From: a virus | IMG/VR virus record: IMGVR_UViG_3300018877_000005 | Coordinates: 1,523 to 65,522 of that record | Length of the DNA: 64,000 nt | Direction: 5' to 3' (one strand) | Part shown: positions 24,323-61,913 of the stretch, piece by piece | Layout: every line of letters begins with the position of its first letter | How positions within the stretch are numbered: position 1 is the stretch's first letter | Translations under genes and position numbers: made by a program | Notes under the pieces: generated by a model | The model's database searches: none | What the model saw: the letters and a program-made list of their open reading frames with translations, nothing else | Told to the model about the DNA's origin: nothing

Positions 24323-24388
24323 AAAGTCACTAAAAGGTTGAAGATACACCTATGACGTGGCACCCTGCAAGCCAAATGGAGGCCCTTT

Positions 24389-25537
24389 ATGGCTAAACGA
24401 AACAAGGATGATTTATCCTCCAAGCGGCCTTTGTCGCAGGACGATAACAAGATTACACGGGCGACCCGAAAGCAGGTGCTCGATGACCTGCGCAAGATGG
24501 CGACGGACAACCCCGACAAGGTGATCTCGCGCAACTTCTACCGGATCAACTCGCAGTACGCGGAATCGGCCTGGAACGCGCATTTCGGCACCTTCGCGGA
24601 GTTCAAGCGACATGCCGGCATCACGCTCTCGCGCCACGCCCACCGCATGGAAAAGGACATCGCGAAGCACGCCTCGAAGGACCTGCAACGGCAGATGACC
24701 GGCGAGAAGATGGGCTATGAGGGCAAGTATCTCCGCCCGTGCAACAAGCGGTTTCAGACCATCGTCAATGTGTCGGACCTGCACGACATCACTTGCGACC
24801 CGTTCTTGCGCCGTCTCTTCATTGAGGCGTGTCGGCGTATCAAGCCGGAAAAGATCGTGCTCAATGGCGATACCTTCGATCTGCCCGAGTTCGGCAAATA
24901 CACGCAGGACCCTCGCGCCTACAAGCTCATCGAGCGCGTCGAGTGGGTGCATACCCTCCTCAAAGAGCTTCGCGAGATTTGCCCCGAGGCGGAAATCGTC
25001 ATGGTGGAGGGCAATCACGAGTTTCGCTTGATCCGGCATCTGACGGAGGCCACGCCCGCCCTCGTGACGGTGCTCTCCGATCTGCACGGCTTTACCGTCG
25101 CCTCGCTCCTCGGCCTCGACAAGTTCGAGGTGAACTACGTCGCCAGGATGGACTTGGCCGCCTTCAATGAGCGCGACATCAAATCGGAACTCGCCAAGAA
25201 CTACTTCATCGCCTATGACGCGGTGCTGTTCCATCACTTCCCCGAAGGTGCGAAGATGGGCTATCCCGGCACCAACGGGCACCATCACAAGTACCAAGCC
25301 GCCTCGTACTATTCCCCGATCTTCGGCCCCTATCAGTGGGTGCAGACCGGCTCAGGGCATATGCGTTCGGCCTCGTACTGCGCGGCGGAGAAGTGGTCGA
25401 ACGGCTTCCTCGTGATCCACGTCGATACGCACACCCGGCATAGCGTGTTCGAGTACGTGGACATTCGAGACTTCGCGGTCCTGGGCGGCGAGTTCTACAC
25501 CCGCCAGGAGGGGGAGGGCGTCTATCCCTTGCGGTAG
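24389..25537 (+). CDS. Calcineurin-like metallophosphoesterase with an N-terminal homing-endonuclease-repeat-like domain
   Basis: SDLH, LNGDTFD, EGNHE, FHH, GHHH; N-terminal W..HFGTFAEF...AG. Confidence 0.8.
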   Translation: MAKRNKDDLSSKRPLSQDDNKITRATRKQVLDDLRKMATDNPDKVISRNFYRINSQYAESAWNAHFGTFAEFKRHAGITLSRHAHRMEKDIAKHASKDLQRQMTGEKMGYEGKYLRPCNKRFQTIVNVSDLHDITCDPFLRRLFIEACRRIKPEKIVLNGDTFDLPEFGKYTQDPRAYKLIERVEWVHTLLKELREICPEAEIVMVEGNHEFRLIRHLTEATPALVTVLSDLHGFTVASLLGLDKFEVNYVARMDLAAFNERDIKSELAKNYFIAYDAVLFHHFPEGAKMGYPGTNGHHHKYQAASYYSPIFGPYQWVQTGSGHMRSASYCAAEKWSNGFLVIHVDTHTRHSVFEYVDIRDFAVLGGEFYTRQEGEGVYPLR

Positions 25538-25613
25538 CTTTGGGTGGAATGTCACTATTAAGTTGAAATGGCAACTGTGCCGTGTTACAGCGGACAAATC
25601 AGACAGGTGGGGC

Positions 25614-25850
25614 ATGGTTTTAACGGCTGAACAGAGGGTAGTGCTGACCGCTCGGCTCGCGGAAGCCGAGAAGGCTTACCATGAGCTACAGACCGGCCAG
25701 CAGGCCCGCGTCCTCGTGGATCAGTCGGGTGAGCGCATTGAGTTCACGCCGGCCACCGCGTCTCGCCTCGCGGCCTACATCACGGACCTGAAGCGGCAAC
25801 TCGGGATGCTCGGCATCTCGTCCACGGGTCCTATGGGGTACTGGTTCTAA
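25614..25850 (+). CDS. Head completion protein gpW-like
   Basis: LAEAEKAYHELQTG..GERIEF..LAAYITDLKRQL; immediately before the portal. Confidence 0.85.
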   Translation: MVLTAEQRVVLTARLAEAEKAYHELQTGQQARVLVDQSGERIEFTPATASRLAAYITDLKRQLGMLGISSTGPMGYWF

Positions 25851-27571: not shown

Positions 27572-28916
27572 CACGCTCCTGGCCCTGTTTACCTCGGCCC
27601 CGTGCCTCGTCGCCCCTGAGATGCAGATTCAGTTCGAGGCGTGCGTCAAGGGTATGGCCGCGCACGAGAAAACCGCCGAACTCATGAACGCCCCCATGAT
27701 GGCGGCGGGTGACAACTTCTGGCCCGATCAAAACGATTGGCGCTCGCAGCTTCGCCCGTACAACGTGAAGGACGGGGTTCTCTACATCCCCGTGCGCGGC
27801 GTGCTCATGCACGATTTCCCGTGGCAGTTCTATTCCTACGCGACCGGCTACGCCTACATCGAGAAGGCGATCCAACGCGGCCAAGAGGATAGCAACGTCA
27901 AGGGGATCGCGCTTGTGATCCACTCGCCGGGCGGCATGGTGTCCGGCTGCTTCGATCTCGTGGAGCGCATCGAGAAGATCGAGAACCGCAAGCCCATCCG
28001 CGCCTTCGCGCATGAGTACGCGGCGTCCGCAGCCTACGCGATTGCCGCCGTGGCCGATCATATCGCCATATCCCGCACGGGCATGGTGGGCTCCATCGGC
28101 GTCGTCACCTCGCACACGGACATCAGTGAGGCGATGGACAAGGCCGGTGTGAAGATCACGTTCGTCCATGCGGGCAAGTACAAGGTCGCGGGCAATCCTT
28201 ACGAGAAGCTCGACGCCGACACCAAGGCGCGGATGCAGGCCCGCGTCGACTCGCACTATGAGATTTTCGTGTCCTCCGTGGCACGGAATAGGGGGATGGA
28301 TGAGAAGGCCGTTCGGGAGACCGAAGCCCTCATCTTCACCGCCAAGGAAGCCGTAGCTAACGGACTGGCCGACTCCATCGGCCCGCTCGATGACGCGGTA
28401 GCGGCGTTCGCATCCGAACTATCTGCAAACGACACAGGAGATGAGCAGATGAAGACGTTTACTCAGGAACAGCTTGACGCCGCCGTCGCCTCGGCGCGGA
28501 CGGAAGGTCATGCCGCCGGCAAGGCCGACGGCGTGAAGGAGGGGGCCACGGGCGAGCGTGCTCGCATCAACGCCATCCTCGAATCCGACGAGGCCAAGGA
28601 TCGCCCCGCCGCCGCGATGGCTGCGGCCCTCTCGACCGACATGAGCGTTGAGGCCACCGCCTCGTTCCTCGCCAAGCTGCCGAAGGAAACGCCGGCTGCG
28701 ACGGTGCAGGGGTCCAAGCAGGACGACAAGGCCACCACGCAGGGCGACAACGGCAACCGCCAGAAGTTCGACTCCGCCATGGAACAGTCTGACAACCCGA
28801 ACCTCGGCGCGTCGGACGGTAGCCGACGCCAGGACGCGGACGAGGATTCCGCCGATAGCGTGCTCGCCCTCGCGGGTGGTGCGGCTCTACCCGGCCTTCG
28901 TCGCAAGAGCGCCTAA
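27564..28916 (+). CDS. S49-family prohead protease with C-terminal scaffold
   Basis: IHSPGGMVSG, AASAAYAIA, VGSIGV, HAGKYK; Ala-rich C-terminus. Confidence 0.9.
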   Translation: MLNTLLALFTSAPCLVAPEMQIQFEACVKGMAAHEKTAELMNAPMMAAGDNFWPDQNDWRSQLRPYNVKDGVLYIPVRGVLMHDFPWQFYSYATGYAYIEKAIQRGQEDSNVKGIALVIHSPGGMVSGCFDLVERIEKIENRKPIRAFAHEYAASAAYAIAAVADHIAISRTGMVGSIGVVTSHTDISEAMDKAGVKITFVHAGKYKVAGNPYEKLDADTKARMQARVDSHYEIFVSSVARNRGMDEKAVRETEALIFTAKEAVANGLADSIGPLDDAVAAFASELSANDTGDEQMKTFTQEQLDAAVASARTEGHAAGKADGVKEGATGERARINAILESDEAKDRPAAAMAAALSTDMSVEATASFLAKLPKETPAATVQGSKQDDKATTQGDNGNRQKFDSAMEQSDNPNLGASDGSRRQDADEDSADSVLALAGGAALPGLRRKSA

Positions 28917-28969
28917 CCGCGCTCTCCCCATCCCTCCCGCAACTAGCCAACATCAACGGAGTTTGAAAC

Positions 28970-29383
28970 ATGGCTACTTACGCTTCTCCCTACATGGACG
29001 TTGGCGTTGCCGCCTTCGAGGAACTCGACACCTACGTCCAGAGCTACCTCATCTCGGGGTCGCATCCGGTTCTCGCCGCCGCGATCTCGCAGAAGGTCAA
29101 GACCGGCGTCACCCTGAAGAAGTTTCAGGTGGTCGGCTACGATGAGAACAACCTCCTCGTGCCTGCCGTGAAGGGCACCGTCCAGGCGGCGGGCATCGTC
29201 ACCGAGGCCATCGTCGGCACGGGCGAGCCCGGCAACGAGACGAAGATTCCGACGTGGTATTCCGGCTGCTTCGAGCCGTCCGCGCTTGCGTGGGACGAGT
29301 CGTATGCGACGGACGAGGACAAGGCGACCGCCTTCGTCGGCGCTCCGACCCCGACCACGATTGCCATCCGCAAGCGTCTCTAA
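28970..29383 (+). CDS. Head decoration protein, gpD-like
   Basis: Position and size between protease and capsid genes. Confidence 0.75.
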   Translation: MATYASPYMDVGVAAFEELDTYVQSYLISGSHPVLAAAISQKVKTGVTLKKFQVVGYDENNLLVPAVKGTVQAAGIVTEAIVGTGEPGNETKIPTWYSGCFEPSALAWDESYATDEDKATAFVGAPTPTTIAIRKRL

Positions 29384-29445
29384 ACACCCCTCTCGCAGCA
29401 ACAGCTATCGGCACCGCCAGAAGCTAAATTCAGGGAAAGACGAAA

Positions 29446-30537
29446 ATGTCTCAGCCTTACAATGTGTGGAACACCCGCAAGTCGCTCGGCGTCATGCGGG
29501 ACGTGGAGCCCGCCTTCACGTATTGGTCGCAGATCGGGTTCTCCCGTTCGATGACCTCGACGGACGAATGGATCGACTTCGAGAAGCTGCCGCGTGTCGG
29601 TCGTGCCCTCGCTCCGTTCGTGCGCCCGCTCGCGCCCGGTAAGGCGGTCTACACGGACAGCGCGACCGGCTTCCGCTTCAAGCCCGCCTATATCAAGCTC
29701 AAGGACGTGATCGACCCGCTCATGCCGCTCGTGAAGCGGGCCGGCATCGACCGCTCGATGATCGCGGAGTCTGAGCTTTCCGCCGAACAGCGCCGTGATC
29801 TCATCCGTGTCGCCATGACCGTCGCCCACGTCAACGCCATCGAGCGCCGTTGGGAATGGATGGCCTCGAAGGCGATCATCGACGCCAAGTACGTCGTGAA
29901 GGGTGAGGACTATCCCGAAGTGCTCGTGGACTTCCGCCGCGATCCGAACCATACCGTCGTGCTCACCTCGGGCAACCGTTGGGGCGACTCGGGCGTGTCC
30001 ATCTTCGACTTCATTCAGCACTCGTGCGACACGATGTTCAACTCGCCGTTCGGCGGCTTCCCGACCCGCATGACCATCGGTTCCGACGTGTGGAAGGTCA
30101 TGCGAAAAGACAAGGAAGTCATGGAACACATGGATACCAACATCCGCAACCCGCGTGCGACCGTCGAGCGCGGCCTCATCTCCGCCGACAAGGTGGTCAA
30201 GGTGGGCGAGCTTTCGGTCGGCGGACAGTCGGGCGCGGTCATTGAGGTGTTCCTCTACCGTGATACCTTCCTTGACGATGAGACCGGCGTCGAGAAGCCG
30301 TTCTTGGAGGCGAGTGATATGGTCCTGACGTGCTCGGATGAGCGCATCATGGGCTACCGCTGCTTCGGGGCGATCATCGATCCCTATGCGAAGTATCAGG
30401 CGCTCGAAATCTTCCCGCGCAACTGGATGGAACAGGGCGACCCGGCGAACGAGTACCTCCTCCACCAATCGGCCCCGCTCTACGTGCCGATCAATCCGAA
30501 CGCCACCTTCAAGGCAACGGTGGTCGCGCCCAACTGA
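29446..30537 (+). CDS. Major capsid protein, lambda gpE family
   Basis: RALAPFVRPLAPG, FKPAYIKLKD, LHQSAPLYVP. Confidence 0.9.
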   Translation: MSQPYNVWNTRKSLGVMRDVEPAFTYWSQIGFSRSMTSTDEWIDFEKLPRVGRALAPFVRPLAPGKAVYTDSATGFRFKPAYIKLKDVIDPLMPLVKRAGIDRSMIAESELSAEQRRDLIRVAMTVAHVNAIERRWEWMASKAIIDAKYVVKGEDYPEVLVDFRRDPNHTVVLTSGNRWGDSGVSIFDFIQHSCDTMFNSPFGGFPTRMTIGSDVWKVMRKDKEVMEHMDTNIRNPRATVERGLISADKVVKVGELSVGGQSGAVIEVFLYRDTFLDDETGVEKPFLEASDMVLTCSDERIMGYRCFGAIIDPYAKYQALEIFPRNWMEQGDPANEYLLHQSAPLYVPINPNATFKATVVAPN

Positions 30538-34111: not shown

Positions 34112-37100
34112 ATGGCTGACAAGGATGTCAAGCTCGTAATCCGAGCCCGTAACGAAGCCTCCAAGGCGATTGACTCGGTAGCCGAGGCGCTCAAAGACCT
34201 CACCAAAGCACAAAAGCAGACCGCCGACACGGCGGACAAAACCTCCGATCTCATCGGGGACTTAGGCTCCGCCTTCGACACTCTGAAGAAGGAAGCGCAG
34301 GGCCTCGAAGTGCTCAGTAAGGTGGCCGGCGCTATCGGTAAGATCGAGGCGGCGGTTTCGACCCTTGAGGACGACGTGAAGAAGTCCTCCGCCGCCCTCG
34401 AAGCGCACAAGCAGGAACTCGCAGAGGCGACCGCCGCGACGGCCAAATACGAAGCCGAGGCGAAGAAGGTCGCCGCCGCCCTCGACGCCGAGAAGGCCGC
34501 CACCAAGGCGTTGCGGACGGAGCGCACGACGGCCAATCGGGAACTGACAAAGGCGCAGGCCGCTTACGACAAGCTGAACGAGGCTCTGCAAAAGAAGCCT
34601 GCCGGTGCGGCGGGAAAATCGGCCCTCGCGTTCCTGGCGGGCGACGTGGACAATGCCAAGAGCAAACTCGCGGAAGTCGAGAAGGCGCTCGACTCGCAGG
34701 TCCGCAAGCAGAACAGCCTCAAGAAAACCCTCTCCAGCGTCAACGCCGAGGTGCGCTCCTCGCAGACCGCGCAAGCCAAGCTGGCCGACCAGATCGAGCG
34801 GGCCGGTGCGGCGGCGAAGAAGAGTGAGGCCAACCTCGCAGACGGGAGGAAGCACCTCACCGAGATCAAGGCCGCCGCCACGCAAGCGGCAACTGCCCTC
34901 GGAGGCGTCACGGTCTCGCAAGAGGCTCTTGAGGCGGCGTCCAAGCAGACGGCGGAAGCGATCAGCCGGGCGCAGGCCGAACTTGCGGCGATGCAGCGGT
35001 TCTCGGACGGGCAGGGGGGATTCACCGACCCCAAGACCGCCGCAGCCCTGCGTCAGCAGACCGCCGCCGTGACCGAGGCTCGCCAGAATTGGGAATTGCT
35101 GGAGGCCCGTGTCACGCTCTTGGCCGAGGCCATGCGCAAGGCTGCGGCTCCGACCGAACAGATGTCGCGGGAGCTTCAGCAAGCCAGGACCGCCGCAGCC
35201 GCCGCCCGCAAAGAGTTCGAGGCGCAGACCGCAGCCCTCAATAAGATGCCCGGCGCGGCACAGAACGCCGGTCGCGGAATGCGCGGCATCTTCTCGCCCA
35301 TCTACGGCGAGTCCCGCCAAGCCATGTCCATGCTTCAGCGTGTGCGCGGTGAAGTCCTGGCCCTCACCACGGCCTATCTCGGCCTCTATGGCACGATTGA
35401 GAGCTTCCGTGGCGTCCTCAAGACCTATCAGGCCATGGAGGCGGCGCAGAGCCGCTTGGGCGTCGTGTTCCAGCAGAACGGGACGCTCATCCGTGCTGAA
35501 ATCGATTGGATCGAGCGTCAGGCCTCCCGCCTCGGCATCACCTTCACCACGCTCTCGGATTCCTACGGCAAGTTCGCGGTCGCGGCGTCGAAGTCGAACT
35601 TCTCGGCTCAGGCGACCCGTGACGTGTTCCTCGCGGTGGCCGAGGCCGGGCGCGTCAACAAGCTCTCCATGGACGACATGCGCGGCGTCTTTGTGGCGCT
35701 TGAGCAAATGATCTCGAAGGGTAAGGTCAGCGCCGAAGAGTTGCGTCAGCAAATGGGTGAGCGTCTGCCGGGCGCATTCGCCCTCATGGCGCGAGCCCTC
35801 GGCAAGACGACCGCCGAACTCGATAAGATGCTGGAGCTTGGCGAGGTGTTCTCGAACGAGGCGACCATGCTCGCCTTCGCCCGCCAACTGAACAAAGAGT
35901 TCGGCTCGCAGCTTGCTAGGTCCCTCAGTTCGACCACGACCCTCATGGGCCGGTTCGGCTATGAGCTTGAGCAAGCGCAAATGCGCGTGGCGAACGGCGG
36001 TTTCATCGACGGGTTCAATGAACTCCTCGAAGAGATGAACAAGTGGTTCCAATCCAGGGAAGGACGAGACTTCTTCCTTGAGCTTGGGGCCGTGGCCGGC
36101 AATTTCGCGAAGGCCCTGGCGCTCATCCCGCCGAACATCGACGCAATCACCTTCGGCGTCAAAGCCTTCATCGCGGTCAAGCTCGCGCAGGTCCTCCAGG
36201 GCGTCATTGCGAACCTCGCCAAGACGCGGGTCGAAGCCTCCGCAACCGTCGCCCAATTCAACCAAGCGACCGGAGCCACGAACGCCCTCGGGGCGGCTCA
36301 GACGACTCTCGGCGCTCGCATCTCGGCGGCAAGTAGCTCCCTCGCAGCCCTGCGCTTCGCCCTCGTCAACACCGCCTCCACCATGACTCTCGCGCAAGCC
36401 CGCACCCTCGGCTTGAACGCGGGCCTCCTGGCCTTCCGTACCGCCGCGAATGCTGCCGCAACGGCAGCGCGGATGCTCTACATGGCTGTTGGCGGGTGGG
36501 CCGGCATTCTCCTCACGGCGGGCTCATTCCTGGCGACAAGCCTCCTCACGGATTGGGTTTCCGGCGTCGATGAAGCGACGACCGCCATGGATGAGCACAA
36601 GCGCATCATGGGCGAGGTGATCGGAGCCTACGAGCGCGTCGGCAAGCTCACGAAGGATTGGGCGAAGGAAATCAAGAACGTCACCGAGGTTGACGCCGCC
36701 CGCAACTTCGCCAAGCGATTTGAAACCTACGAAAAGTCCATGAAGGACTTGAAGAAGGCTATCATCGACGTGGCCGAGCCGATGGGTGAGCGGTGGACCT
36801 TCGGCCTTCTCCGCAGCGATGCGAAGAAGAAGATCGATGACCTGCTTGCTTCGTTCGACGGGGGCAAGCTCGAAGACTTCCGTAAGAAGCTCCTCGACCT
36901 CCACGGCGAGATCGAGGATTTCGAGGCGCAGAAGCTCATCCAGGCGCTTGACGAGGTGATCGTCAAGGCCATGCAGGAAGAACGCGCCTTGGGAGAGGCG
37001 GCCCTCGCGGCACAGGCCAAGGGCGTCAAGAACGAGTTGCTCGCCAAGGTCCTGAAGCTGACCGGCGCGACCATGGAGTCCGTCTCGCAGGCGGCAGAGG

Positions 37101-38980
37101 GGAACAAGGAAGCTCTCGACGCCGCCGCGAAGGCGGTAGACGCCTACAAGAACGCCCTCGACAAAGTGAAGGGGATGATCCCCGAGCTTGCGAACGAGAT
37201 GAAGAAGCTGGAGGAGCTTCGCAAACTCGATGCGGAACTCGACGCCATCGGGCCGGGTCCTCTGTCGCCCGAGATGCAGCAATACGCCAACCGGGCTCGC
37301 CAAGCCATCGAGGCAGCGTACATCGACACGACGCCCCTGCAAAACAGCCTCGACACCAACTCGGCGGAACTGAAGAAGTTCTACGAGGAGATCAAGGGCC
37401 GGGCGAACCTCATGTCGAGCGATCCGAGCCGGTGGGGCAACCCGCGTGATCGCTCGTGGCAGACGAATTTCCTCACGAGCATTGAGACGCAATCGGGCCA
37501 GAAGGCGCTTGTTCACAAGTCGGCCGCCGCCGCATTCCAAGGCTTCATCAATGAGCTTGAGCAAGCCATCGGCTACGAGATCAAGAGCCTCGGCGGCTGG
37601 AAAATTCGCCCCAACACGAGCGATCCGAGCCGCCTCTCGGAGCACGCCTGGGGTAACGCCATCGACATCAACCCCGAGCAAAACCCGTACCTGAAGAAGC
37701 TCGTTACGGACATGCCCGATCTCGTCGGCATGATCGCGGCAAAGTACGGCCTCTCGTGGGGTGGCGATTGGAAGTCCGTCAAGGACCCGATGCACTTTGA
37801 ATGGACCGGCCAGCAAGCGCCGGGGGCTGTTCGCGCCACCAAGGACGAACTCGACATCCAGAAGCAGAAGACTCAGGAGCTTATCAAGCAGAATGAGGAA
37901 CTTCTGAAGGGCCACGAGCACACGCAGAAGGCCCTTGAGGACCTCGGGTTCGAGATCACGCAACAAGACCTCAAGATCGCCGGCAAGGACAAAGAGGCGT
38001 TTATCGAGGAGAAGATTCGCGGGCTCAAAGAGGGCAACAAGAACATCACAGACGAGCAGATCGCGAAGGCGAAGGAACTTCTCGGCACGCTCTACGATCA
38101 AGAACACCGCCTCGACGGCGTGAAGAAGGCCGAGGAAGAAGTCAACCGGCTCATGCAACTCCGCAAAGAGTTGATGGAGCAGATCGAGTTCTTCGAGAAC
38201 CAGGGCGAGCACGCCAAGGCCGAGCAACTCAAGACGCAGCTTGAGCAGGTCAACGAACAGCTTATGCGGGCGGCGGACAACGCCATCGCCATGTGGCGGG
38301 CTATCGGCGGACCCGATGCGGAACTTGCGATTGCCAAGCTCCAGACCACGAAGCTGCAAGTTCAGGACCTCGGCAACAAGTCGCAGATCACCGGCAAGCA
38401 GATTAACGACATGCTGGCCGACGGGCTCACCAACGCCTTCGACTCGTTCGCTCAGGCTATCGCCAGGGGCGAGAACGCGGTTGACGCGCTCTGGCGTGCC
38501 TTCCTGCAATTCGCCTCGGACTTCCTGATTCAGATCGGCAAGATGATCTTGAAACAGGCCCTCCTCAACGCTCTGCAAGCCGGTGGCGGGGCAGGGGGCG
38601 GCGTCGGAGGATTCCTCGCGGCGGCCATCGGCGCAGCCTTCCACTCGGGCGGCGTCGTCGGCTCAGGGGGAACACCGCGCCTCGTGTCGCCGGGATGGTA
38701 CGCCAACGCCGTGAAGTACCACCAGGGCGGCATCGTCGGTCTCAAGCCTGGGGAGATGCCCGCCGTTCTCAAAGAGGGTGAGGTGGTTGATCCTGGCGAC
38801 GGCTCCGTCTTCAACAAGGTCTTTGGCGGGGCTCAGGCGCAGCCGCCCGTCGTCAAGATCGTGAACGCCATCGACTCGGCGGATGTCGTCTCGCAGGGCA
38901 TCAACAGCGCGGTCGGAGAACAAGCGGTCCTCAACTTCATCCGCGCCAACCGGGGCGCGGTCAAGGAAATCCTCGGGTAA
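34112..38980 (+). CDS. Tape measure protein with an embedded M15-type peptidoglycan peptidase domain
   Basis: 1622 aa, Ala-rich, EELRQQMGERLPGA; SEHAWGNAIDIN..WGGDW..DPMHFEW at about 37500-37803. Confidence 0.92.
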   Translation: MADKDVKLVIRARNEASKAIDSVAEALKDLTKAQKQTADTADKTSDLIGDLGSAFDTLKKEAQGLEVLSKVAGAIGKIEAAVSTLEDDVKKSSAALEAHKQELAEATAATAKYEAEAKKVAAALDAEKAATKALRTERTTANRELTKAQAAYDKLNEALQKKPAGAAGKSALAFLAGDVDNAKSKLAEVEKALDSQVRKQNSLKKTLSSVNAEVRSSQTAQAKLADQIERAGAAAKKSEANLADGRKHLTEIKAAATQAATALGGVTVSQEALEAASKQTAEAISRAQAELAAMQRFSDGQGGFTDPKTAAALRQQTAAVTEARQNWELLEARVTLLAEAMRKAAAPTEQMSRELQQARTAAAAARKEFEAQTAALNKMPGAAQNAGRGMRGIFSPIYGESRQAMSMLQRVRGEVLALTTAYLGLYGTIESFRGVLKTYQAMEAAQSRLGVVFQQNGTLIRAEIDWIERQASRLGITFTTLSDSYGKFAVAASKSNFSAQATRDVFLAVAEAGRVNKLSMDDMRGVFVALEQMISKGKVSAEELRQQMGERLPGAFALMARALGKTTAELDKMLELGEVFSNEATMLAFARQLNKEFGSQLARSLSSTTTLMGRFGYELEQAQMRVANGGFIDGFNELLEEMNKWFQSREGRDFFLELGAVAGNFAKALALIPPNIDAITFGVKAFIAVKLAQVLQGVIANLAKTRVEASATVAQFNQATGATNALGAAQTTLGARISAASSSLAALRFALVNTASTMTLAQARTLGLNAGLLAFRTAANAAATAARMLYMAVGGWAGILLTAGSFLATSLLTDWVSGVDEATTAMDEHKRIMGEVIGAYERVGKLTKDWAKEIKNVTEVDAARNFAKRFETYEKSMKDLKKAIIDVAEPMGERWTFGLLRSDAKKKIDDLLASFDGGKLEDFRKKLLDLHGEIEDFEAQKLIQALDEVIVKAMQEERALGEAALAAQAKGVKNELLAKVLKLTGATMESVSQAAEGNKEALDAAAKAVDAYKNALDKVKGMIPELANEMKKLEELRKLDAELDAIGPGPLSPEMQQYANRARQAIEAAYIDTTPLQNSLDTNSAELKKFYEEIKGRANLMSSDPSRWGNPRDRSWQTNFLTSIETQSGQKALVHKSAAAAFQGFINELEQAIGYEIKSLGGWKIRPNTSDPSRLSEHAWGNAIDINPEQNPYLKKLVTDMPDLVGMIAAKYGLSWGGDWKSVKDPMHFEWTGQQAPGAVRATKDELDIQKQKTQELIKQNEELLKGHEHTQKALEDLGFEITQQDLKIAGKDKEAFIEEKIRGLKEGNKNITDEQIAKAKELLGTLYDQEHRLDGVKKAEEEVNRLMQLRKELMEQIEFFENQGEHAKAEQLKTQLEQVNEQLMRAADNAIAMWRAIGGPDAELAIAKLQTTKLQVQDLGNKSQITGKQINDMLADGLTNAFDSFAQAIARGENAVDALWRAFLQFASDFLIQIGKMILKQALLNALQAGGGAGGGVGGFLAAAIGAAFHSGGVVGSGGTPRLVSPGWYANAVKYHQGGIVGLKPGEMPAVLKEGEVVDPGDGSVFNKVFGGAQAQPPVVKIVNAIDSADVVSQGINSAVGEQAVLNFIRANRGAVKEILG

Positions 38981-44499: not shown

Positions 44500-45230
44500 T
44501 GGCGGACGAGGACAATCCTGAGCGCATGATCGAGCGGGGATACCCCGACATCGAGAGGCCGGATCACAGTCGCGAGCTTCGCAACAAGTTCCGCGCCTAT
44601 TGGGCGAAGGGCGAGCAGCTTTGGGACGTGGACCTGAACAACAATTTCCGGTTCATGAATTGGTGGAACGCCCTCGCGGTGGACTTCCGGCGCAAGCCCT
44701 ATGGCCCGTATCCCGACCGCCAGGGCGGTTATACCGCGATCATCGACTCGGGGGAGTGGAAGGATTGCATCGGCTTCCTCGGATCGGCAGAGCCCGAGTT
44801 CCTGCGTCCCTTCAAAGGCGCAATGGTCTACATCGTGGCCGACCGGATGTTCGTCGGCTATGACGGCTCGCAATGGCATCCCGTGGTCGAGAGTCCGTTC
44901 TTCTGGCGGCCCTCGGTTGAGGTGGCCCTGTTCGCCACGCAGCCGCACCCGAACGCGGTCTTCGTCAGCCACACCCTCGACAAGCCCGTGATGTTCAAGG
45001 CCGACGGGCGAGGATGTCGGACGCGCAGCATCAGTTCTTGGGTTCAGGTGGAGGTGCTCAAGAACGGCGATCCGGTCGGCACCCTGTCCACGAGCGCCGA
45101 CGGCTTGAGCCGTGTGCGGTTCAACGGGGACACGACGTTTGCAGCCGGCGACGTTTTGGCCCTAAAGTCACCATTGAAGTTACTCGGCACTAGAAACGTG
45201 TCGGTGAGTCTGTTGGGGAAACTGCTATGA
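44499..45230 (+). CDS. Second DUF2793-like tail protein (paralog)
   Basis: WDVDLNNNF..LRPFKGAMVYIV..YDGSQW. Confidence 0.6.
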   Translation: MADEDNPERMIERGYPDIERPDHSRELRNKFRAYWAKGEQLWDVDLNNNFRFMNWWNALAVDFRRKPYGPYPDRQGGYTAIIDSGEWKDCIGFLGSAEPEFLRPFKGAMVYIVADRMFVGYDGSQWHPVVESPFFWRPSVEVALFATQPHPNAVFVSHTLDKPVMFKADGRGCRTRSISSWVQVEVLKNGDPVGTLSTSADGLSRVRFNGDTTFAAGDVLALKSPLKLLGTRNVSVSLLGKLL

Positions 45231-48200
45231 GCTACTTTTCGGTGAAGCCTCTCGCCTCCTGGCCGTATGTGGAGGTGTCGGAGGTTGACGAGCGCACGGG
45301 CGCGGCAACGCCCATCGAGATCGAGCCGCCGTTGATCGTGGCTCCGACCGCGTTCCGCGTCTCGCCCGAGGCCGACCAAGCCGCCTTCGTCTACAGCATG
45401 CGCCAGGGGCAGACACCCGGTCTCGGCAACCCCAATGAGCCGCCTCCGCCCGAGGGGATCAAGGTGTTCTCCCACGATGACGCCTATCTCCTCTTCGGCG
45501 GCAACGCGGGCGACGGTCCCGCGCTCTATCGGCGCAGCGGCCCGACCTATATCCACCTCGAAGCTGACCCCCTACCGTTCTCGGGCGGCTACATCACGCT
45601 CGCGGCGTTCGCGCCTGGCACCCATAAGCTCGCCCTCGTGCGGTCGAGCGAGCCGGCCAAAGTGTATGTCTTAGATCGGGGGGAGAACAAATACCTCGCG
45701 GGAGCCTCGCTGACGGCCTCGGGCAACGTTTGGGATGTCTGGTACTCGGAGGGTGGGAAATTCCTGTGTGTGACGCTGGAATCCGCGTCCACGCTCTATC
45801 TCGCGGACAACCTCGCGCCCGTGAGTGGACTTCCTGCCGGGAAGGTGCTCGCAATCTCCCCCGACGAGCAGTACGCGGTTGTCGATGATCGTACCTTTGC
45901 GGGAACCCTCAAGGTGTATCGGTTCGACGGGAGCGCCTTCAGCCTCTATTCAGACGCACCGGGAACCGAAGGCTCGAACCGAAGGGCGAAGTTCTCACCG
46001 GATGGCGTGACTCTCCTCGCCTCGTGCGCCACGACGGAGAGCATCAAATCGCCCGTAATCCTGGCGCAGCACGAGGGCGCATTCAAGCTCGTCGCGTCAA
46101 AGTCCCGTGTGGGATCGGGGGGCTCGTTTGACGACATCGTGTTCAGCGCAGACTCGCAGCGCATGTTCCACTCTCTCAAAGAGACCGCCGCCTCGGAATC
46201 CGTCATTGAGGCATACATGCGGGGGGCTGTCGAGGTGGGCTCCCTTCAGGCGCTCGACTTTCCGGCAACGAAGCCGACCAGCGTCAACGGGCAATCCGTC
46301 GCCTTTTCGCCGGGGGGCGACTATCTCGCGGCGACGGGTGGGCTACTCTACATCTACAAGCGGGAGGGCTCCACCTTCACGCGACTTACACCCTCCAACA
46401 GCGCCACCGGGGCGATTTCCGCAGCCTTCTCGCCCGATGATGTCTATCTCGCCGTAGGCTATGCGGGTGCGAGCAGCGGCACGGGCGCGGTCTCACTGTT
46501 CAAGCGGGACGGAGATACCTTTACGCACGTCCACCGCTCTACCATTTCTCTCGACGGGGCGGCCAAACTGGCATGGTCGCCGGACGGAGTTCACCTCGCA
46601 CTCACGAACGGGCAGAACACCGGCTACCGCATGTTCAAGCGCAGCGGGGATAGTTTCGTCAGCCTCACCATCCCGACCGAAGCCACCGTCGGCACGATCA
46701 CCGTTTTGACGTTCTCTCCTGACGGTCAGAACTTCGCTATCGGGTGGAACGGAGGGGCGGCGTACCCCACGGGGGGCGGCCTTGTGATTTACAGCCGCAG
46801 CGGTGACACGTTCGCCCGGCAGACCGTACTCACCTCACTCTTGTCAGCCGTCGGCCCGACCTGCGCAGCCTATTCGCCGGACGCCTCACAATTCCTCGTG
46901 GGTGACGGCTCGGACATCGTTCAGTTCACACGCAGCGGGAATGACTACACAAAGCTCGACTCCGTTGCGGCGGAGGGAGTCCTAACAGCAATCGCCTTCG
47001 CGTCCAATGGATCGAGTGTGGCGGTCGCGCACAATGGGGGAACCTTCCTGTCGGTCTATGGGGTTTCGGGGGCGTCTCTGACGCTCAGGAACGACGCGGC
47101 CACGGCCCCATCAGGCGTTCCAAAGAGTGTCGCCATCACGCCCGACGGCGACTACATCGCAACGCTCCACAACGCATCGCCTTACTTGACGGTGTTCCAT
47201 GAGGAGGAGCCCTACACACTCACAACCTACCTCTTGGAAGCCTCAATCCCGACGGGTGCAGCCCTGCGCAAGATTTGGTGCCTGTCCCCCGAGGGTGATC
47301 TCCTCCACTTCGGATCGGGCGGAACCAACTGGCATATCAGGACCTCAAGCCCATTCGGGGACGTGCTCTACGTGCCGTTCGAGGGCGATTACGAGGCTCG
47401 CTTCGTCTCGGACGTGCTCTACAGCCCGACCGGGCGCACGGTGATTTGGACGAGCCCTGCCGGACTCCAGGCGGCCACCTCGGACTATGACAATCAATAC
47501 ACGAAGTTCTCCCGCCTGAACGGCGTGTTCGTGAGCGTCTACACCCGCAAGGATGACAGCTTGGTTGAGAAGGGCTTCGTCACCCATGCCGAGGGGAGCC
47601 GGATCAGCAACATCGTGTTCTCGAAGACACCCCTGAGCCTGAGCTACTTCGTGGCGCACGACCAGGGCTCGGCGGCGGTGCGCGGTCGCCATATCTTCGA
47701 CACCCACGGCAACGTGCTCGCGCTCAAGGGCGTCGAGTTCGAGGATGGGATGACGGCTTCGTTCCTGGCCTACTCGCCGTTCGAGGAGCATTTCGCCGTC
47801 ACCTACCAATACACGGGCAAACCAAGCGAGATCGTCCTTTATCGCTTCGACGCGCAACTGAACTACGTTGAGCTTGATCGTGAGCCCGTGCCGTTCGGCC
47901 CGGTCGCCTATTCCTCGTGTGAGGACATTGTGGTTGCACACGGCGGCACGGCGAAACCCTTCACGATTTACAAGCGTATCGAAACCGAGCTTGTGGAACA
48001 GCCTTACCCTGAGATGGATTGGCAGCACGAGGGGCTCATCCTCGACATCGCGTTCATGAACAACTGCGAGCAACTTGTCGTGGTGACGCCGGACAAGATT
48101 GTCGTGGTCGAGAAGGACGAGGACGGGGTTGAGGAGAGCGACTCGGATCAGACGGACGGCGGCGAGGGTGATCCTCAACTTGACGTGCGCCCCGATGGAA

Positions 48201-48337
48201 CGGTGGGCGTGACCTATCCGACACCGGGCGGGGGCGGCACCGGGGGCGGGGGTGAATGGCAGGTCGATCCTGGCGGCAACCTCGTCGCGGTCAAATACAT
48301 CCCCTACGCGACGGTTCATGTGACCTATCGACTCTAG
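45227..48337 (+). CDS. Large multi-beta-propeller virion protein, candidate receptor-binding protein
   Basis: Repeated FSPDG-type WD40-like blades over 1036 aa. Confidence 0.7.
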   Translation: MSYFSVKPLASWPYVEVSEVDERTGAATPIEIEPPLIVAPTAFRVSPEADQAAFVYSMRQGQTPGLGNPNEPPPPEGIKVFSHDDAYLLFGGNAGDGPALYRRSGPTYIHLEADPLPFSGGYITLAAFAPGTHKLALVRSSEPAKVYVLDRGENKYLAGASLTASGNVWDVWYSEGGKFLCVTLESASTLYLADNLAPVSGLPAGKVLAISPDEQYAVVDDRTFAGTLKVYRFDGSAFSLYSDAPGTEGSNRRAKFSPDGVTLLASCATTESIKSPVILAQHEGAFKLVASKSRVGSGGSFDDIVFSADSQRMFHSLKETAASESVIEAYMRGAVEVGSLQALDFPATKPTSVNGQSVAFSPGGDYLAATGGLLYIYKREGSTFTRLTPSNSATGAISAAFSPDDVYLAVGYAGASSGTGAVSLFKRDGDTFTHVHRSTISLDGAAKLAWSPDGVHLALTNGQNTGYRMFKRSGDSFVSLTIPTEATVGTITVLTFSPDGQNFAIGWNGGAAYPTGGGLVIYSRSGDTFARQTVLTSLLSAVGPTCAAYSPDASQFLVGDGSDIVQFTRSGNDYTKLDSVAAEGVLTAIAFASNGSSVAVAHNGGTFLSVYGVSGASLTLRNDAATAPSGVPKSVAITPDGDYIATLHNASPYLTVFHEEEPYTLTTYLLEASIPTGAALRKIWCLSPEGDLLHFGSGGTNWHIRTSSPFGDVLYVPFEGDYEARFVSDVLYSPTGRTVIWTSPAGLQAATSDYDNQYTKFSRLNGVFVSVYTRKDDSLVEKGFVTHAEGSRISNIVFSKTPLSLSYFVAHDQGSAAVRGRHIFDTHGNVLALKGVEFEDGMTASFLAYSPFEEHFAVTYQYTGKPSEIVLYRFDAQLNYVELDREPVPFGPVAYSSCEDIVVAHGGTAKPFTIYKRIETELVEQPYPEMDWQHEGLILDIAFMNNCEQLVVVTPDKIVVVEKDEDGVEESDSDQTDGGEGDPQLDVRPDGTVGVTYPTPGGGGTGGGGEWQVDPGGNLVAVKYIPYATVHVTYRL

Positions 48338-57250: not shown

Positions 57251-57997
57251 TTACCACAAATCTTCGGAGAAAAGAATGGTCGGATTACCATGCTTTTTGA
57301 TAATCTGCCCTGCCTTCGTGGCGATCTCCAGGGCTTCTTTGCGACCCACGAAGCGACCTCGCGTCGTCACGAAACCTTGCTCGCCCGTGATCGGCGTCTT
57401 GTGGCCGTTATCGGCCATGGCGCGAATGATGTCGTGGTGTCGGGCAGGGCGGGGGAGGCAGACCGGGCGTCCCTCGGAATCCTTGATCGCGGCTACGAAG
57501 ATTTCCTCGTGATCGGCGCGAATATAGTGACCCGCCTCGGTCTGCCTTAACCATACGCGAGGCTCGCTCATATGCTCCGCACAGACGACCTGACCGAACT
57601 CTTGCTGACAAACGCAATCCTCGCGGCAGAACTTCGGCTTATCGAGGCTGCGGTCATGCTCAATCGGCACGTCGCCGGCAACCTTCCGGTACACCCGTTG
57701 GTCGAGGACGACTTGCTTCGCGTCCATGGCGTCATTGAGTTGCTCACAGGTATGGCCGGCGCGATACATGGAGTCGAGCACGAGGAACATGAGGTCCGCA
57801 AACTCCATGATGTCTCTCGGAGCCTCGGCGGCTTCGAGGGCTTCCTTCGAGAGATGCTTCAGGGGGCCGACAGGGCCGCGCTCATCGCGGTCCCCGAAGT
57901 TCCTTACCGACCACTCGCGATGTCTTGCGACGGTCTCGGCCCGCAGGACAAAACCGTACTGCGGGGATGCGTCTCGTGTTGCAATGTTCGTTGTCAT
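57251..57997 (-). CDS. DUF550-like dATP/dGTP pyrophosphohydrolase fused to a phage hypothetical domain
   Basis: GPVGPLKHLSKEALEA..EFADLMFLVLD..RAG; C-terminal PARHHDII..QGFVT..GRFVGR.EA..IA. Confidence 0.75.
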   Translation of the reverse strand: MTTNIATRDASPQYGFVLRAETVARHREWSVRNFGDRDERGPVGPLKHLSKEALEAAEAPRDIMEFADLMFLVLDSMYRAGHTCEQLNDAMDAKQVVLDQRVYRKVAGDVPIEHDRSLDKPKFCREDCVCQQEFGQVVCAEHMSEPRVWLRQTEAGHYIRADHEEIFVAAIKDSEGRPVCLPRPARHHDIIRAMADNGHKTPITGEQGFVTTRGRFVGRKEALEIATKAGQIIKKHGNPTILFSEDLW

Positions 57998-58009
57998 GAT
58001 CGTTCGTCC

Positions 58010-58792
58010 TTAAACGGCAACTTTGCCTTTGATGGATGGGTGAGCTTGATAATCGAGGACGAGGAAATCCTCGAACTTGTAATCGAAGATGGAGTCCGGC
58101 TTGCGGGCGAACTTCAGCGTCGGAAGAGGGTAGGGCTTCCGCGTCATTTGGAGCGCCAGTTGCGGGACATGGTTCTTGTAGATATGCACGTCACCGCCGC
58201 TCCAAATAAGCTCGCCAGGATGCAGGTCGCATTGCTGCGCAAGCATGTGGAGGAGGGACGCATAGAACGCGATGTTGAAGGGTACGCCGATGAACACGTC
58301 TGCGGACCTCTGTTGCACCATGAGATTGAGCTTGCCGTTAATCACCATGACCTGAAAAGCCATGTGGCACGGGTGTAGCGCCATGTCGTCAAGTTCACCC
58401 ACGTTCCACGCTGAAACGACCATGCGGCGGGAGTCGGGGTTCGTCTTGATCTCATGCACGAGCCACGAGATTTGATCGATGCGATCATCCCACTTGCGCC
58501 ATTGCGCACCATACACCGGCCCGAGATTGCCGTACTCGTCCGCCCATTTATCCCAAATGCTGACGCCGTTCTCTTGCAGGTAGCGGACGTTCGTGTCACC
58601 GCTCAACATCCACAGAAGCTCATGGATGATCGATTTGAGGTGGAGCTTCTTCGTGGTGAGGAGTGGAAACCCGTCACGCATGTCAAAGCGCATCATGTGA
58701 CCCGAGAGCCGGATCGTGCCGGTTCCCGTGCGGTCCTCGGACTCTTCACCTTCGTTGAGGATGCGCTCGACCAGATCGAGATATTGCTTCAT
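58010..58792 (-). CDS. thyA: Thymidylate synthase
   Basis: [49 protein letters not shown]. Confidence 0.97.
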
Positions 58793-58925
58793 TGGACAAC
58801 CCTATTGTCACCATTAGGTTGACGTTATGAGCGCGGTTTTATCGTTTTGCAAGGGGAAGATCGCAAAGACAGCCTCACACAAGCATCTCGGGCTTAGGTG
58901 CCGACTGAGATCATAGGGGGTTCGG

Positions 58926-60422
58926 ATGAGTCTTTACGGCGTTCTGCGTAGCGGCGTCTCTGGCATGAATGCGCAATCGAATAAGCTAGGGACCGTGGCC
59001 GATAACATTCAGAACTCAAGCACGAACGGCTACAAGCGTGCCTCGACGGAGTTCTCATCCCTCATCCTGCCGTCGGGCGAGGGGAGCTATAACTCGGGCT
59101 CCGTGACGAGTCGGGTCCGCTATACAATATCCGACCAAGGGCCGATTGCTTACACGACATCCTCGTCAGACTTGGCGATCTCGGGCAACGGCTTCTTTGT
59201 GGTCACTGACGCAAGCGGCTCACCCTACCTGACCCGCGCCGGAAACTTCGTCAAAGACGGGCGGACGGGCGACCTTGTCAATGCTGCCGGCTTTACCCTG
59301 ATGGGCTACAAGTTAGGGGAGGGGGCCGTGAACCCCGCTCTGAACAGCCTCGACGGTGCCGTGCCGGTCAACATGGCGTCTTTCGCTATGCAGGCGACCG
59401 CCTCGACGCAGGGGACGTTCACGGGCAATCTGCCGTATGGTGCCCCTATCGCGGTGGCGGTAGGGGTGGGCACCCCCGCCGATCCGGCAGCAACCCCACC
59501 TGTGTCTGGAAGCGTGCTTTTCCCGCCACCCGCTATGCAGAGCGGGGAGAAGGTCAAGTTCTCGGTTGGAGGTGGACCGGAGCAAACGTTTGTCATCACG
59601 ACACAAAAGACCGTTGCCGATCTCGCAGACGACATTAACGCCGCCGTAGCTGCCGGCACTCTCACCGGAGTCAGTGCATCGACAACAGCCGATGGTGAAT
59701 TGGTACTGACCTCGACCGACCCCCTCAACAATACGGACGTAACGGGGACCTACACGTCCGTAACCAAAGCCTCGTCGCTTCAGGTTTACGATAAGGTTGG
59801 CAACCCGATCAAGATCGATATTGCCCTGTCCAAGATCAGCGCGACACAATGGAGTATCACCGTTCTCAACGGCTCCGATCCCACGTCGTCGCTGACCGGC
59901 ACGACAACAATGATGTTGAACTTCGATGCCGACGGACAGCTTACCGGCCCATCGACGCTGACGTTTGACATCCCTGGCGGCGAACCGTTCACGCTCGATA
60001 TGGGCGGTACTACGCACCTCGCGGGCGACTACAGCGTCACCGGCACGTCGAACGGCAATGCCCCCTCGGCGGTGAAGGATGTCGAGTTCGGAGCCGACGG
60101 GACGGTCTACGCGGTCTATGAGGATGGCACCCGAGTCGGCGCTTATCGGATTCCGCTTGCGAACGTCGCGAGCCCTGACAACCTCAACCCTCGTGCCGGG
60201 AATGTCTATGAGCCGACCGCAAGCTCAGGCGGCTACCAAGTCGGCTTTCCCGAGGAGTCGGGCTTCGGCTCTATCGCCTCGGGAGCCCTGGAAGGATCGA
60301 ACGTCGATATTGGTACGGAGCTAACGGCCATGATCGAAGCTCAGACCAGCTACACGGCCAACTCGAAGGTGTTCCAGACGGGTTCCGAGTTGCTCGATGT
60401 CCTTATGAACCTGAAGCGTTAA
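58926..60422 (+). CDS. flgE: Flagellar hook protein FlgE, rhizobial type, with an internal extra domain
   Basis: GVSGMNAQSNKLGTVADNIQNSSTNGYK, DLAISGNGFFVV, YLTRAGNF, LEGSNVDIGTELTAMIEAQTSYTANSKVFQT; AGGGGG RBS. Confidence 0.95.
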   Translation: MSLYGVLRSGVSGMNAQSNKLGTVADNIQNSSTNGYKRASTEFSSLILPSGEGSYNSGSVTSRVRYTISDQGPIAYTTSSSDLAISGNGFFVVTDASGSPYLTRAGNFVKDGRTGDLVNAAGFTLMGYKLGEGAVNPALNSLDGAVPVNMASFAMQATASTQGTFTGNLPYGAPIAVAVGVGTPADPAATPPVSGSVLFPPPAMQSGEKVKFSVGGGPEQTFVITTQKTVADLADDINAAVAAGTLTGVSASTTADGELVLTSTDPLNNTDVTGTYTSVTKASSLQVYDKVGNPIKIDIALSKISATQWSITVLNGSDPTSSLTGTTTMMLNFDADGQLTGPSTLTFDIPGGEPFTLDMGGTTHLAGDYSVTGTSNGNAPSAVKDVEFGADGTVYAVYEDGTRVGAYRIPLANVASPDNLNPRAGNVYEPTASSGGYQVGFPEESGFGSIASGALEGSNVDIGTELTAMIEAQTSYTANSKVFQTGSELLDVLMNLKR

Positions 60423-61138
60423 TCTCCTACCTTTGAGGAAGCGGCTTCGGCCGCTTCAGCACGTCGGATTGCTTGTTCCAGAGATTCACGGTTCTCACGC
60501 CGTAGCTGACGATATGCCTTGTTCTCCTCCTCCAGTTCCTTGTTCTTCTGGTGGAGGGTGAGGAGTTCGGAATACTCTGAACGATCCCCGAGGATGCCGA
60601 GGTATTCACGAAATAGCTTTTCAGGGAGAACCCTGGTCGCCCATGCGTAGATGCGTGTCAGCAAGTCTTTCCGGCGTTTGTCGCTCTGCTGGAGGGTGAG
60701 GAGGGCTTGGAGAACCATCGTCACGGCATGCCCGGCAGATGCAGGCTGTTCACGTTCAGGGATCAGCCCCTCCAGTTTATCGAGCGCAGAGGACAGGCCG
60801 TCCCAATACTCCTGCGGAACCTCTGGAGGGTTTGCGTTTGCCGTGTTGTCGCAAAGGTTCCATGCTGCCCGAACGACTTCACGGGTGGCCTCCACCAGCC
60901 CCGCATAGTCCGTCCCGGTGGGGAGGGGGGAGGCGAGAACCGCAATGAGCTTAAGAGCATCCTCAGCCGTGCTGCGGTACTCTGCTTTGTGCGGCTCATC
61001 TTCCCATTCAATATGGTGTTCGGGCGCGAAGCGGTGCCAGAGCAGTTTAGCAAGTTCTTCGCTTGCCTCACTCCCGGTAGTCTCAGGAAGTGAGGGAGTT
61101 GCGCTATTGACCCGTTCCTGTCTGTCATTGAGTTCCAT
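60419..61138 (-). CDS. Hypothetical protein with C-terminal coiled coil
   Basis: GGAGG RBS, upstream TATAAT on the minus strand; shares the TTAA stop overlap with flgE. Confidence 0.6.
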   Translation of the reverse strand: MELNDRQERVNSATPSLPETTGSEASEELAKLLWHRFAPEHHIEWEDEPHKAEYRSTAEDALKLIAVLASPLPTGTDYAGLVEATREVVRAAWNLCDNTANANPPEVPQEYWDGLSSALDKLEGLIPEREQPASAGHAVTMVLQALLTLQQSDKRRKDLLTRIYAWATRVLPEKLFREYLGILGDRSEYSELLTLHQKNKELEEENKAYRQLRRENRESLEQAIRRAEAAEAASSKVGD

Positions 61139-61213
61139 TGACCACCTCCAATTCCTTAATCATTTCAAGGACTTAGGTTCCATAATCTTCATTATACGAA
61201 TCCGCGATCGATC

Positions 61214-61396
61214 TTAAATCGTCGGGTAGTTGTCCCGCACAATCTCCAGAAGGACGCGCTTCAAATCCTCGACCGTCTGCGCACCTTCGATCTCTTGCAC
61301 TAGCTCCTCCCCCCGAACGATCTTCGCGGCGGTTTGGACGCTAATGCCGTGCGCATCTCGAAGCTCCCTTACACGATCCCCGTCCATCTCACGCAC
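61214..61396 (-). CDS. Small hypothetical protein, possibly HTH-like
   Basis: ORF track. Confidence 0.5.
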   Translation of the reverse strand: MREMDGDRVRELRDAHGISVQTAAKIVRGEELVQEIEGAQTVEDLKRVLLEIVRDNYPTI

Positions 61397-61913
61397 CCTC
61401 CGGTAGCTCGTACCAAGCGTCGAATTGGTTGAGCCATTGATTGAGCGTCATCTCCGGTGGGTAGTTATCGGACCCGAACGCTTCGACGTTCCCATTCCAT
61501 TCCCGCTTGAACCTCTCCACGATCCTGCGCATGTGAAGGACGAACGTGTCAACGCAGACGGGATCAATCTCTGAAATGTTCCCCACATCCGAGGCACCGA
61601 CGTTCATAGCCCCGCGCAACTGTGCAAAGATCGCGTCAATCTCAGCGTTCACGCGGTTGAGCGGCTGCTTCAGGATTTCCTCACACCGGGCGTCGTTCTC
61701 GAAACCGAGTACGAGGGCATTTTGAAAGGCCCGCTCGATCCTCAGTTTCGCATTGCCGCTCAGAACGTCTCGGATCACCATACGCAGCCGGGCGTTCTCG
61801 TTCTCGGACGCCACAAGGGCCTTTGCAAGACCCTCCCGCAGAGACTCCGTGTGACAATGTGCTTGGTGAAGCTGCTTGTAGTCCTCGTCCGTGTAGTGTT
61901 GCTTGCTCATCAT
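61389..61913 (-). CDS. Hypothetical protein
   Basis: ATGA overlap, GGAGG RBS. Confidence 0.55.
   Translation of the reverse strand: MMSKQHYTDEDYKQLHQAHCHTESLREGLAKALVASENENARLRMVIRDVLSGNAKLRIERAFQNALVLGFENDARCEEILKQPLNRVNAEIDAIFAQLRGAMNVGASDVGNISEIDPVCVDTFVLHMRRIVERFKREWNGNVEAFGSDNYPPEMTLNQWLNQFDAWYELPEGA

Follow-up and report, generated by a model that had tools for sequence, protein, structure and literature searches.

The first report of a phage that rebuilds the flagellum is recent and concerns a phage-borne flagellin. In this system, FliC_P and TldR of the Enterobacter prophage FRphi, a flagellin with constant D0/D1 and divergent outer domains leads to a rebuilt flagellum in the lysogen (bioRxiv 10.1101/2025.07.22.666180; PMC13418256). 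In virome surveys, flgE has also been catalogued as an 'auxiliary metabolic gene' on predicted viral contigs (bioRxiv 10.1101/2024.06.11.598143), as catalogue entries that come without a check of context, origin, selection or regulation. Here we analyze a flgE gene, coding for the subunit of the flagellar hook, within a 64,000-nucleotide stretch of DNA (the window) that comprises positions 1523-65522 of the 67,072-bp IMG/VR virus record IMGVR_UViG_3300018877_000005. The reading we prefer, with a probability of roughly 0.6, is that a temperate Chi-like siphovirus infecting Microvirga, probably a ParA-partitioned episome, carries the host-derived flgE as a moron for conversion of the hook.

By analogy, FliC_P/TldR is the closest precedent for such a gene. 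Both are phage-borne axial subunits of the flagellum, and the combination of a host-like D0/D1 core with different outer domains is exactly matched in the FlgE of a related Amorphus phage discussed below. Unlike FliC_P, the gene concerns the hook and not the filament, is accompanied by neither TnpB/TldR nor a guide RNA that silences the host gene, keeps the flagellar upstream box of the host, and is found in a Chi-like carrier with soil Hyphomicrobiales as hosts. A preliminary description of this DNA knew of no characterized phage-borne hook gene and proposed a search of phage databases. The literature, where only the catalogue mentions were found, and a tblastn search of 50,697 deposited phage records, which returned no convincing FlgE, concur with it. 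The tblastn matches, of 29-33%, come from Listeria 'phage' fragments without annotation and from two gut contigs; they resemble host DNA or unverified contigs and were set aside. The literature further contains a gene of phage G whose family is merely a neighbour of flgE.

The upstream region of flgE covers 58823-58925, and the gene and its upstream elements are as follows:
58926 to 60422, plus strand: flgE, 498 amino acids, a complete hook subunit (D0-D1-insert-D2-D1-D0) by Pfam, PDB relatives and phylogeny
58859 to 58925, plus strand: host-derived leader, homologous in alignments to the fliI-flgE intergenic region of hosts, with the ribosome-binding site GGGGG at 58916-58920
58870 to 58899, plus strand: flagellar box CAGCCTCACACAAGC (58870-58884) followed after 9 nt by TTAGGT (58894-58899), a promoter-like element of the host flagellar regulon

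Open reading frame and Pfam architecture both bear out the initial view of an intact, full-length FlgE with its two polymerization ends. Along the protein follow Flg_bb_rod (7-37), D1 (84-157), Flagellin_IN (211-265), FlgE_D2 (264-373) and Flg_bbr_C (452-496). The D0 ends score above cut-off (PF00460 at 7-37 with 31.5 bits, PF06429 at 452-496 with 57.4 bits), and the domains that tell hook from rod proteins are present (PF22692, 42.4 bits; PF07559 FlgE_D2, 34.2 bits). Among PDB entries the top matches are Salmonella FlgE hooks (6jzt, 3a69), with FlgG and FlgF ranking lower. The NCBIfam subfamily model for hook-basal-body proteins, TIGR03506, is passed with 269 versus a cut-off of 70; the top equivalog, NF004243 for FlgE, reaches 535 bits versus a cut-off of 801, with the match split by the insert. 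An AlphaFold2 model based on an 11-row alignment was poor (predicted local distance difference test score of 57) and was not used.

As had been noted from the start, flgE is the sole plus-strand gene within a minus-strand arm and has no flagellar company: the whole 67-kb record is devoid of genes for flagellin and FlgD. Its neighbours are phage genes of nucleotide metabolism, which on the minus strand further include a dATP/dGTP pyrophosphohydrolase, a DUF3310/kinase-like gene, a DNA methylase and a dNMP phosphatase. The two adjoining genes are:
58010 to 58792, minus strand: thyA (thymidylate synthase), a divergent phage neighbour assigned by domain and PHROG families, which also adjoins flgE in L002, a contig of a second Microvirga phage
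60419 to 61138, minus strand: open reading frame of 239 amino acids without family assignment, convergent with flgE and absent from L002 and from the Amorphus phage

The position of flgE within phage DNA was checked with public contigs aligned to window positions 57500-61500, a misassembly having been one of the possibilities raised in the preliminary description. The thyA/flgE junction is bridged by a contig of the source run (4388 bp, zero differences) and by a second biological soil crust (biocrust) sample. It is also spanned by contigs of a related phage, from a rhizosphere run (8690 bp at depth 127) and from a soil run; these contigs depart from the window sequence immediately past the flgE stop. 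The window's own junction between flgE and the downstream sequence is crossed only by the source-run contig. In L002, an 8.9-kb Logan contig from another study, a 97%-identical FlgE lies in the matching thyA/pyrophosphohydrolase context. In all, spanning contigs are available from three studies. Two exact-pattern scans of JGI metagenome contigs did not find the junction, and an IMG/VR scan aimed at close relatives of the window FlgE returned none. The second biocrust sample also contains a 2037-bp contig that matches the flgE ends only (58926-59075 and 60279-60422), and 894 versus 1203 bases separate these ends. The contig represents a host-like flgE of the short form that co-occurs with the phage.

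The phage gene is of host origin. Its product is closest to FlgE proteins of Microvirga; among the named ones, that of M. zambiensis WSM3693 comes nearest with 85% identity, and the closest homologues sit in fliI-flgE-flgK-flgL-flaF clusters. Maximum-likelihood phylogeny pairs the two phage copies (support 100/100) and nests them within a Microvirga clade (98/96). Homology to the hosts on the DNA level extends from ~65 bp before the ATG to 2 nt past the stop codon, and the two Microvirga phages, window and L002, diverge from each other right past this stop. From the bounds of homology at the leader start and the stop codon, the transferred unit is therefore the leader plus the coding sequence. 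The chromosomal FlgE of M. zambiensis WSM3693 has the same length (498 residues), domain order including the Flagellin_IN-type insert, and upstream box; in contrast to chromosomal flgE, the phage copy stands alone between thyA and the family-less open reading frame, with homology limited to the stretch from leader to stop.

Synonymous (dS) and nonsynonymous (dN) divergence of flgE and of flanking phage genes compare as follows:
flgE, phage copy versus phage copy: dS 0.18, dN 0.015, dN/dS 0.08
flgE, host versus host: dS 0.95, dN 0.090, dN/dS 0.095
thyA, phage versus phage: dS 0.44, dN 0.078, dN/dS 0.18
pyrophosphohydrolase, phage versus phage: dS 0.55, dN 0.135, dN/dS 0.25

Constraint on the phage flgE is equal to that among hosts and tighter than for the phage genes at its sides. 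Of the 227 columns with at least 95% conservation among 41 Microvirga FlgE, 223 are retained in both phage copies, and M362T is the sole deviation at conserved columns that they have in common. Neither the host-conserved columns nor dN/dS reveal a decay or dominant-negative signature. The phylogeny and dN/dS comparison suggested at the outset thus yields a gene derived from Microvirga and under strong purifying selection (0.08). Judging from the sequences, part of this constraint could stem from an unsampled host lineage, yet no host sequence falls within the phage pair.

With respect to the nearest known host, the core of the window FlgE is 92% and its D2 83% identical, although the host actually infected may differ. 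A chimeric FlgE with core and surface taken from different hosts was considered and discarded, as M. zambiensis is near-best for the core (0.924 versus 0.928) and nearest for insert and D2. Within Microvirga, FlgE occurs in short (~400 residues) and long (480-498 residues) forms that differ by an insert of ~95 residues. The comparison of loci L005-L043 showed these forms to be patchy on the tree, with the 498-residue L003 being sister to the 394-residue M. lupini Lut6, which implies that the outer domain was gained, lost or recombined more than once. Orphan genes, away from any flagellar cluster, exist as well. One flgE, 81% identical to that of the window (L178:6001-7497), is located among small open reading frames beside a giant RTX-like gene on a bacterial-looking contig; another, of a 635-residue form (L180:1015-2922), adjoins a transposase-like helix-turn-helix (HTH) gene, again on a bacterial-looking contig. 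It seems that flgE is mobile in this bacterial group.

The leader contains a sequence element that the phages keep from their hosts. In ~75 Hyphomicrobiales loci, from genera that include Microvirga, Chelatococcus, Tardiphaga, Bradyrhizobium and Amorphus, the distance from the end of the 15-mer CAGCYYCRCRCAAGC to the flgE ATG is 41 nt. The box is located 41-56 nt before flgE (L005, L092, L044, L076 and ~70 other loci) together with a T-rich hexamer, and, correctly oriented, it also precedes motA and the DUF1217/flgF operon in Hyphomicrobiales. Box and hexamer are conserved and the intervening spacer has diverged. All three phage flgE copies retain the box despite dS values of 0.6-1.2 from hosts, and it has no second occurrence in the phages. 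Only part of an earlier observation survives here: of the GCAAG, GCAAAG and CACAAG elements that had been likened to rhizobial flagellar promoters, the CACAAGC-containing box at 58870-58884 is conserved, and the rest are not conserved elements. As RNAalifold detected no conserved pairs in 23 leaders and no Rfam family matches at the leader or elsewhere in the window, we read the box as a DNA element and not as RNA; the flg-Rhizobiales RNA motif had no match at the host loci. Visual comparison gave no fit of the box to the consensus sequences for sigma-54, sigma-28 or CtrA. Box and hexamer look like a candidate promoter or operator of the flagellar regulon, for which no match to a known sigma factor was found.

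A second flgE-bearing phage emerged from an alignment-based scan of IMG/VR. The record UViG_2926584956_000001 (hereafter G001; 64,173 bp, rated 100% complete) is a separate contig within the assembly of an Amorphus orientalis isolate (GCA_030814015.1). It runs collinear to the window phage, with identities of 68% for TerL, 67% for capsid and for helicase, and 62% for portal. Its flgE, coding for 574 residues, again stands as the single plus-strand gene of the corresponding arm, in the orientation seen in the window, here between a DUF3310 gene and ArdA. The same assembly holds a chromosomal flgE of 410 residues in a normal flagellar cluster. Between the two proteins, residues 1-170 and the last ~130, corresponding to D0/D1, are ~94% identical, and in these ends the DNA identity is 85%, dS 0.63 and dN/dS 0.09-0.10. 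The D2 region of the phage protein is diverged and doubled, with 33% identity between its two copies.

G001 is the only one of 25 related viral records with flgE (12 of the records are at least 90% complete), and this sporadic distribution points to independent, convergent captures. A single ancestral acquisition for both phages was judged the less likely history, given that closer TerL relatives are without flgE and that the nearest FlgE of each phage copy is found in its respective host genus, Microvirga or Amorphus. From these sequence relationships, two independent captures appear likelier.

Two further observations belong to this survey. A C4 antisense RNA (RF01695, 58.5 bits, above the gathering score) is located at L083:10166-10251 on the plus strand, 440 bp after the flgE of G001; we take it to be a P1/P7-type immunity RNA, and the window contains no match to it. 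In addition, a FlgE N-terminus with 56% identity over 170 residues (L084:8001-8603, IMG/VR provirus G002) lies at the outermost end of a predicted provirus beside an amidase and a SocA-like antitoxin, where host flank and phage cargo are indistinguishable.

What kind of phage carries the gene? The source record, from a run that sampled biological soil crust, is rated 100% complete by CheckV over its whole 67 kb. It contains a complete siphovirus set of TerL, portal, protease, major capsid, a 1622-residue tape measure and tail proteins, as well as replication genes for a primase-helicase, a DNA polymerase, an exonuclease, a Gp2.5-like single-stranded DNA-binding protein and an SNF2-type helicase. 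The structural module spans 22-53 kb of the window, far from flgE, and two other regions matter for the assignment:
22244 to 30537, plus strand: packaging and head genes of Chi-like type (TerL, portal, protease, major capsid), the basis of the phage classification
14723 to 17062, both strands: lifestyle module recognized by its families, with an XRE-type HTH regulator (14723-15439, plus strand) and a ParA/VirC1 ATPase (16289-17062, minus strand)

TerL matches 509 phage records, at the top Loktanella pCB2051-A with 62% identity. It is 54-59% identical to that of Casjensviridae-type phages of Achromobacter, Rhizobium, Ruegeria and Klebsiella, and many Salmonella Chi-like phages match as well. 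The PHROG assignments of the phage modules agree with a Chi-like (Casjensviridae-type) placement. The shared packaging and head module and the TerL matches therefore make 'Chi-like' correct for the backbone; flagellum dependence, which the preliminary description mentioned for some Chi-like phages, is a possibility here and not to be presupposed. Packaging, head, tail and replication modules are common to the window phage and Chi-like phages or Casjensviridae such as Chi, YSD1, Loktanella pCB2051-A and Ruegeria DSS3-P1. In contrast to Chi and YSD1, the window phage showed no fibre of their type when its 1036-residue candidate was tested, and it belongs to a temperate subgroup with integrase or ParA. 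Within the tape measure (34112-38980), residues ~1096-1349 form an internal lysozyme/endolysin-like segment (phrog_1768).

The window region 14510-21620, with the XRE regulator, ParA/VirC1, a WGR-domain protein and several open reading frames without family, takes the place where relatives have a tyrosine integrase beside terS. Such an integrase of 410-428 residues adjoins terS in all five relatives tested (G001 and four others), several of which are flagged as proviruses, and none of the relatives has the ParA of the window phage. This looks like a swap of the integrase for a partition module. Judged by its integrase genes, the group is temperate, and since relatives carry integrases and a ParA module stands in their place here, the window phage is probably an episomal temperate phage maintained by ParA. 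The prophage assumed initially is thus upheld as to the temperate group, with integrases in kin and ParA here, and has to be given up as to integration, the record being a free metagenomic contig without integrase or resolvase.

Two further elements flank the cassette:
58808 to 58822, plus strand: intergenic motif TCAMY-N5-GTTGA, one copy between thyA and flgE, identical in the second phage copy
60438 to 60457, no strand assigned: GC-rich hairpin with an 8-bp stem and a TTCG loop, 16 nt past the flgE stop, a weak terminator candidate without U-tract

The motif has 17 matches in the window between 3797 and 58822 (for example at 24327, 32487, 34076, 51743, 56732 and 58808) versus 0.45 expected, and the copy upstream of flgE is 47 nt 5' of the flagellar box. 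Its sites lie 15-50 nt before start codons, several with a GTCAAC partner ~20 nt upstream, and all ten asymmetric copies are on the plus strand, even where genes are on the minus strand. It probably serves as operator for a phage regulator. The hairpin after flgE has -21 kcal/mol and a z-score of -1.96; the one at the same place in L002 differs, with 17 bp and a stronger z-score of -6.0. The cassette has an orientation opposite to the flanking operons, a host-type box with hexamer as candidate promoter, and a hairpin that is weak here and strong in L002, a build that may be that of a moron.

How might such a gene act? The cassette consists of the flgE coding sequence and ~65 bp of host leader with the promoter-like box, inserted against the direction of the phage nucleotide-metabolism operon. 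In carrier cells, phage flgE would be transcribed along with the host flagellar regulon and its product exported via the flagellar type III system. As its D0/D1 core is essentially host-identical, the phage FlgE would polymerize into the hook, beside or replacing the host FlgE. The outer layer of D2 and insert would then change and with it the surface and mechanics of the hook. Expression, export, co-assembly and benefit of the phage FlgE are what we infer from the gene and its setting. Most likely, the carrier cell would be shielded from phages that depend on the flagellum, perhaps this one among them, or would gain altered motility; immune visibility, which had been considered as well, is irrelevant for a soil-crust host. 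Since no repressor of the host flgE is present, mixed hooks are expected unless gene dosage favours the phage copy. The lysogenic hook conversion proposed at first is retained in a modified form: a host-derived, selected, moron-like gene with host box, temperate kin and a carrier isolate that has its own flgE remain, and the integrated prophage drops out.

Several points weigh against hook conversion. The long tail fibre of YSD1_29 type confers flagellotropism on Chi and YSD1 (PMC12264135), and no Chi/YSD1-type fibre was found in the window phage when its 1036-residue candidate (45227-48337) was tested, the other tail genes not having been tested individually. This candidate carries a β-propeller and has no match in Chi-like Salmonella phages. 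The variant hook subunit that the preliminary description envisaged is not supported for the Microvirga phage. Its FlgE is not unusual, with no extra divergence (dN/dS of 0.085 versus known hosts and 0.095 among hosts), and its ~95-residue insert is also present in the chromosomal FlgE of several Microvirga species. On the regulatory side, a scan for sigma-70-like promoters at the phage flgE detected none, and the terminator hairpin is weak in the window phage. No tyrosine integrase or resolvase was found in the window phage, so that stable carriage of this metagenomic record is inferred only from ParA and kin. No RNA run was found that holds the phage flgE, and the TnpB/TldR domain PF07282 is absent from both the window phage and G001, leaving no TldR-type repressor of the host flgE.

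A more specific form of hook conversion, for temperate Chi-like phages of soil Hyphomicrobiales in general, is that it makes the carrier cell refractory to flagellum-dependent phages, including the phage's own progeny, through a host-compatible FlgE with a new outer layer under control of the host regulon. We regard this as possible but doubtful. In that case the hook surface would be a checkpoint in flagellotropic infection, and the system would parallel FliC_P/TldR at the level of the hook, with no repressor involved.

The alternative that survives best, and which we still consider unlikely, sees FlgE as a tool of the lytic cycle: made in productive infection, it would occupy or perturb flagellar export and assembly or keep the cell motile, without any carrier trait. 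The position of flgE in an early-type nucleotide-metabolism arm, the phage-wide motif upstream of the box and a record without integrase would all fit. The host box and hexamer kept in three phage copies in spite of their distance from hosts, the direction opposite to the surrounding operon and the temperate kin speak for use in carrier cells instead, and all polymerization residues are retained with no dominant-negative signature. Moreover, it is established for flagella that a basal body, once complete, has ceased to export subunits of the hook.

Less probable still is a passenger gene from illegitimate recombination, of no benefit to the phage, which at most shuttles hook alleles among Microvirga strains. 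It is hard to reconcile with a dN/dS of 0.08 between two phage copies whose downstream neighbours were swapped, with a flgE better conserved than the flanking phage genes, with a conserved regulatory box, and with an independent capture by a related phage in the same arm and orientation. What it would account for is the sporadic presence in 1 of 25 related records, the orphan flgE genes beside small open reading frames or a transposase in bacterial contigs, and the patchiness of long and short forms on the host tree. Capture on two occasions, strong selection and a host control box that was kept argue that flgE pays its way.

A role outside the hook, with the FlgE-like protein as a virion part, secreted decoy or adsorption blocker, is very improbable: the gene's solitary state would suit it, but FlgE has no PHROG family, all regions including the export and polymerization ends are conserved as in hosts, and the gene is far from the structural module. 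An artefact, be it a chimeric assembly or host DNA binned as viral, has a negligible chance even for a metagenomic contig and is refuted by junction-spanning independent contigs, one of them at 127x, and by phage FlgE copies that make up their own clade, 15% away from any host.

Hook conversion by a host-derived moron is therefore the reading we prefer. To our knowledge, the hook has not been known to matter for phage entry. Hyphomicrobiales gain a candidate flagellar promoter in the conserved box that precedes flgE, motA and the flgF operon, and the cultured Amorphus orientalis carrier, with both host and phage hook genes, makes the question experimentally tractable. A phage-borne hook gene would extend phage remodelling of the flagellum to a second flagellar part.

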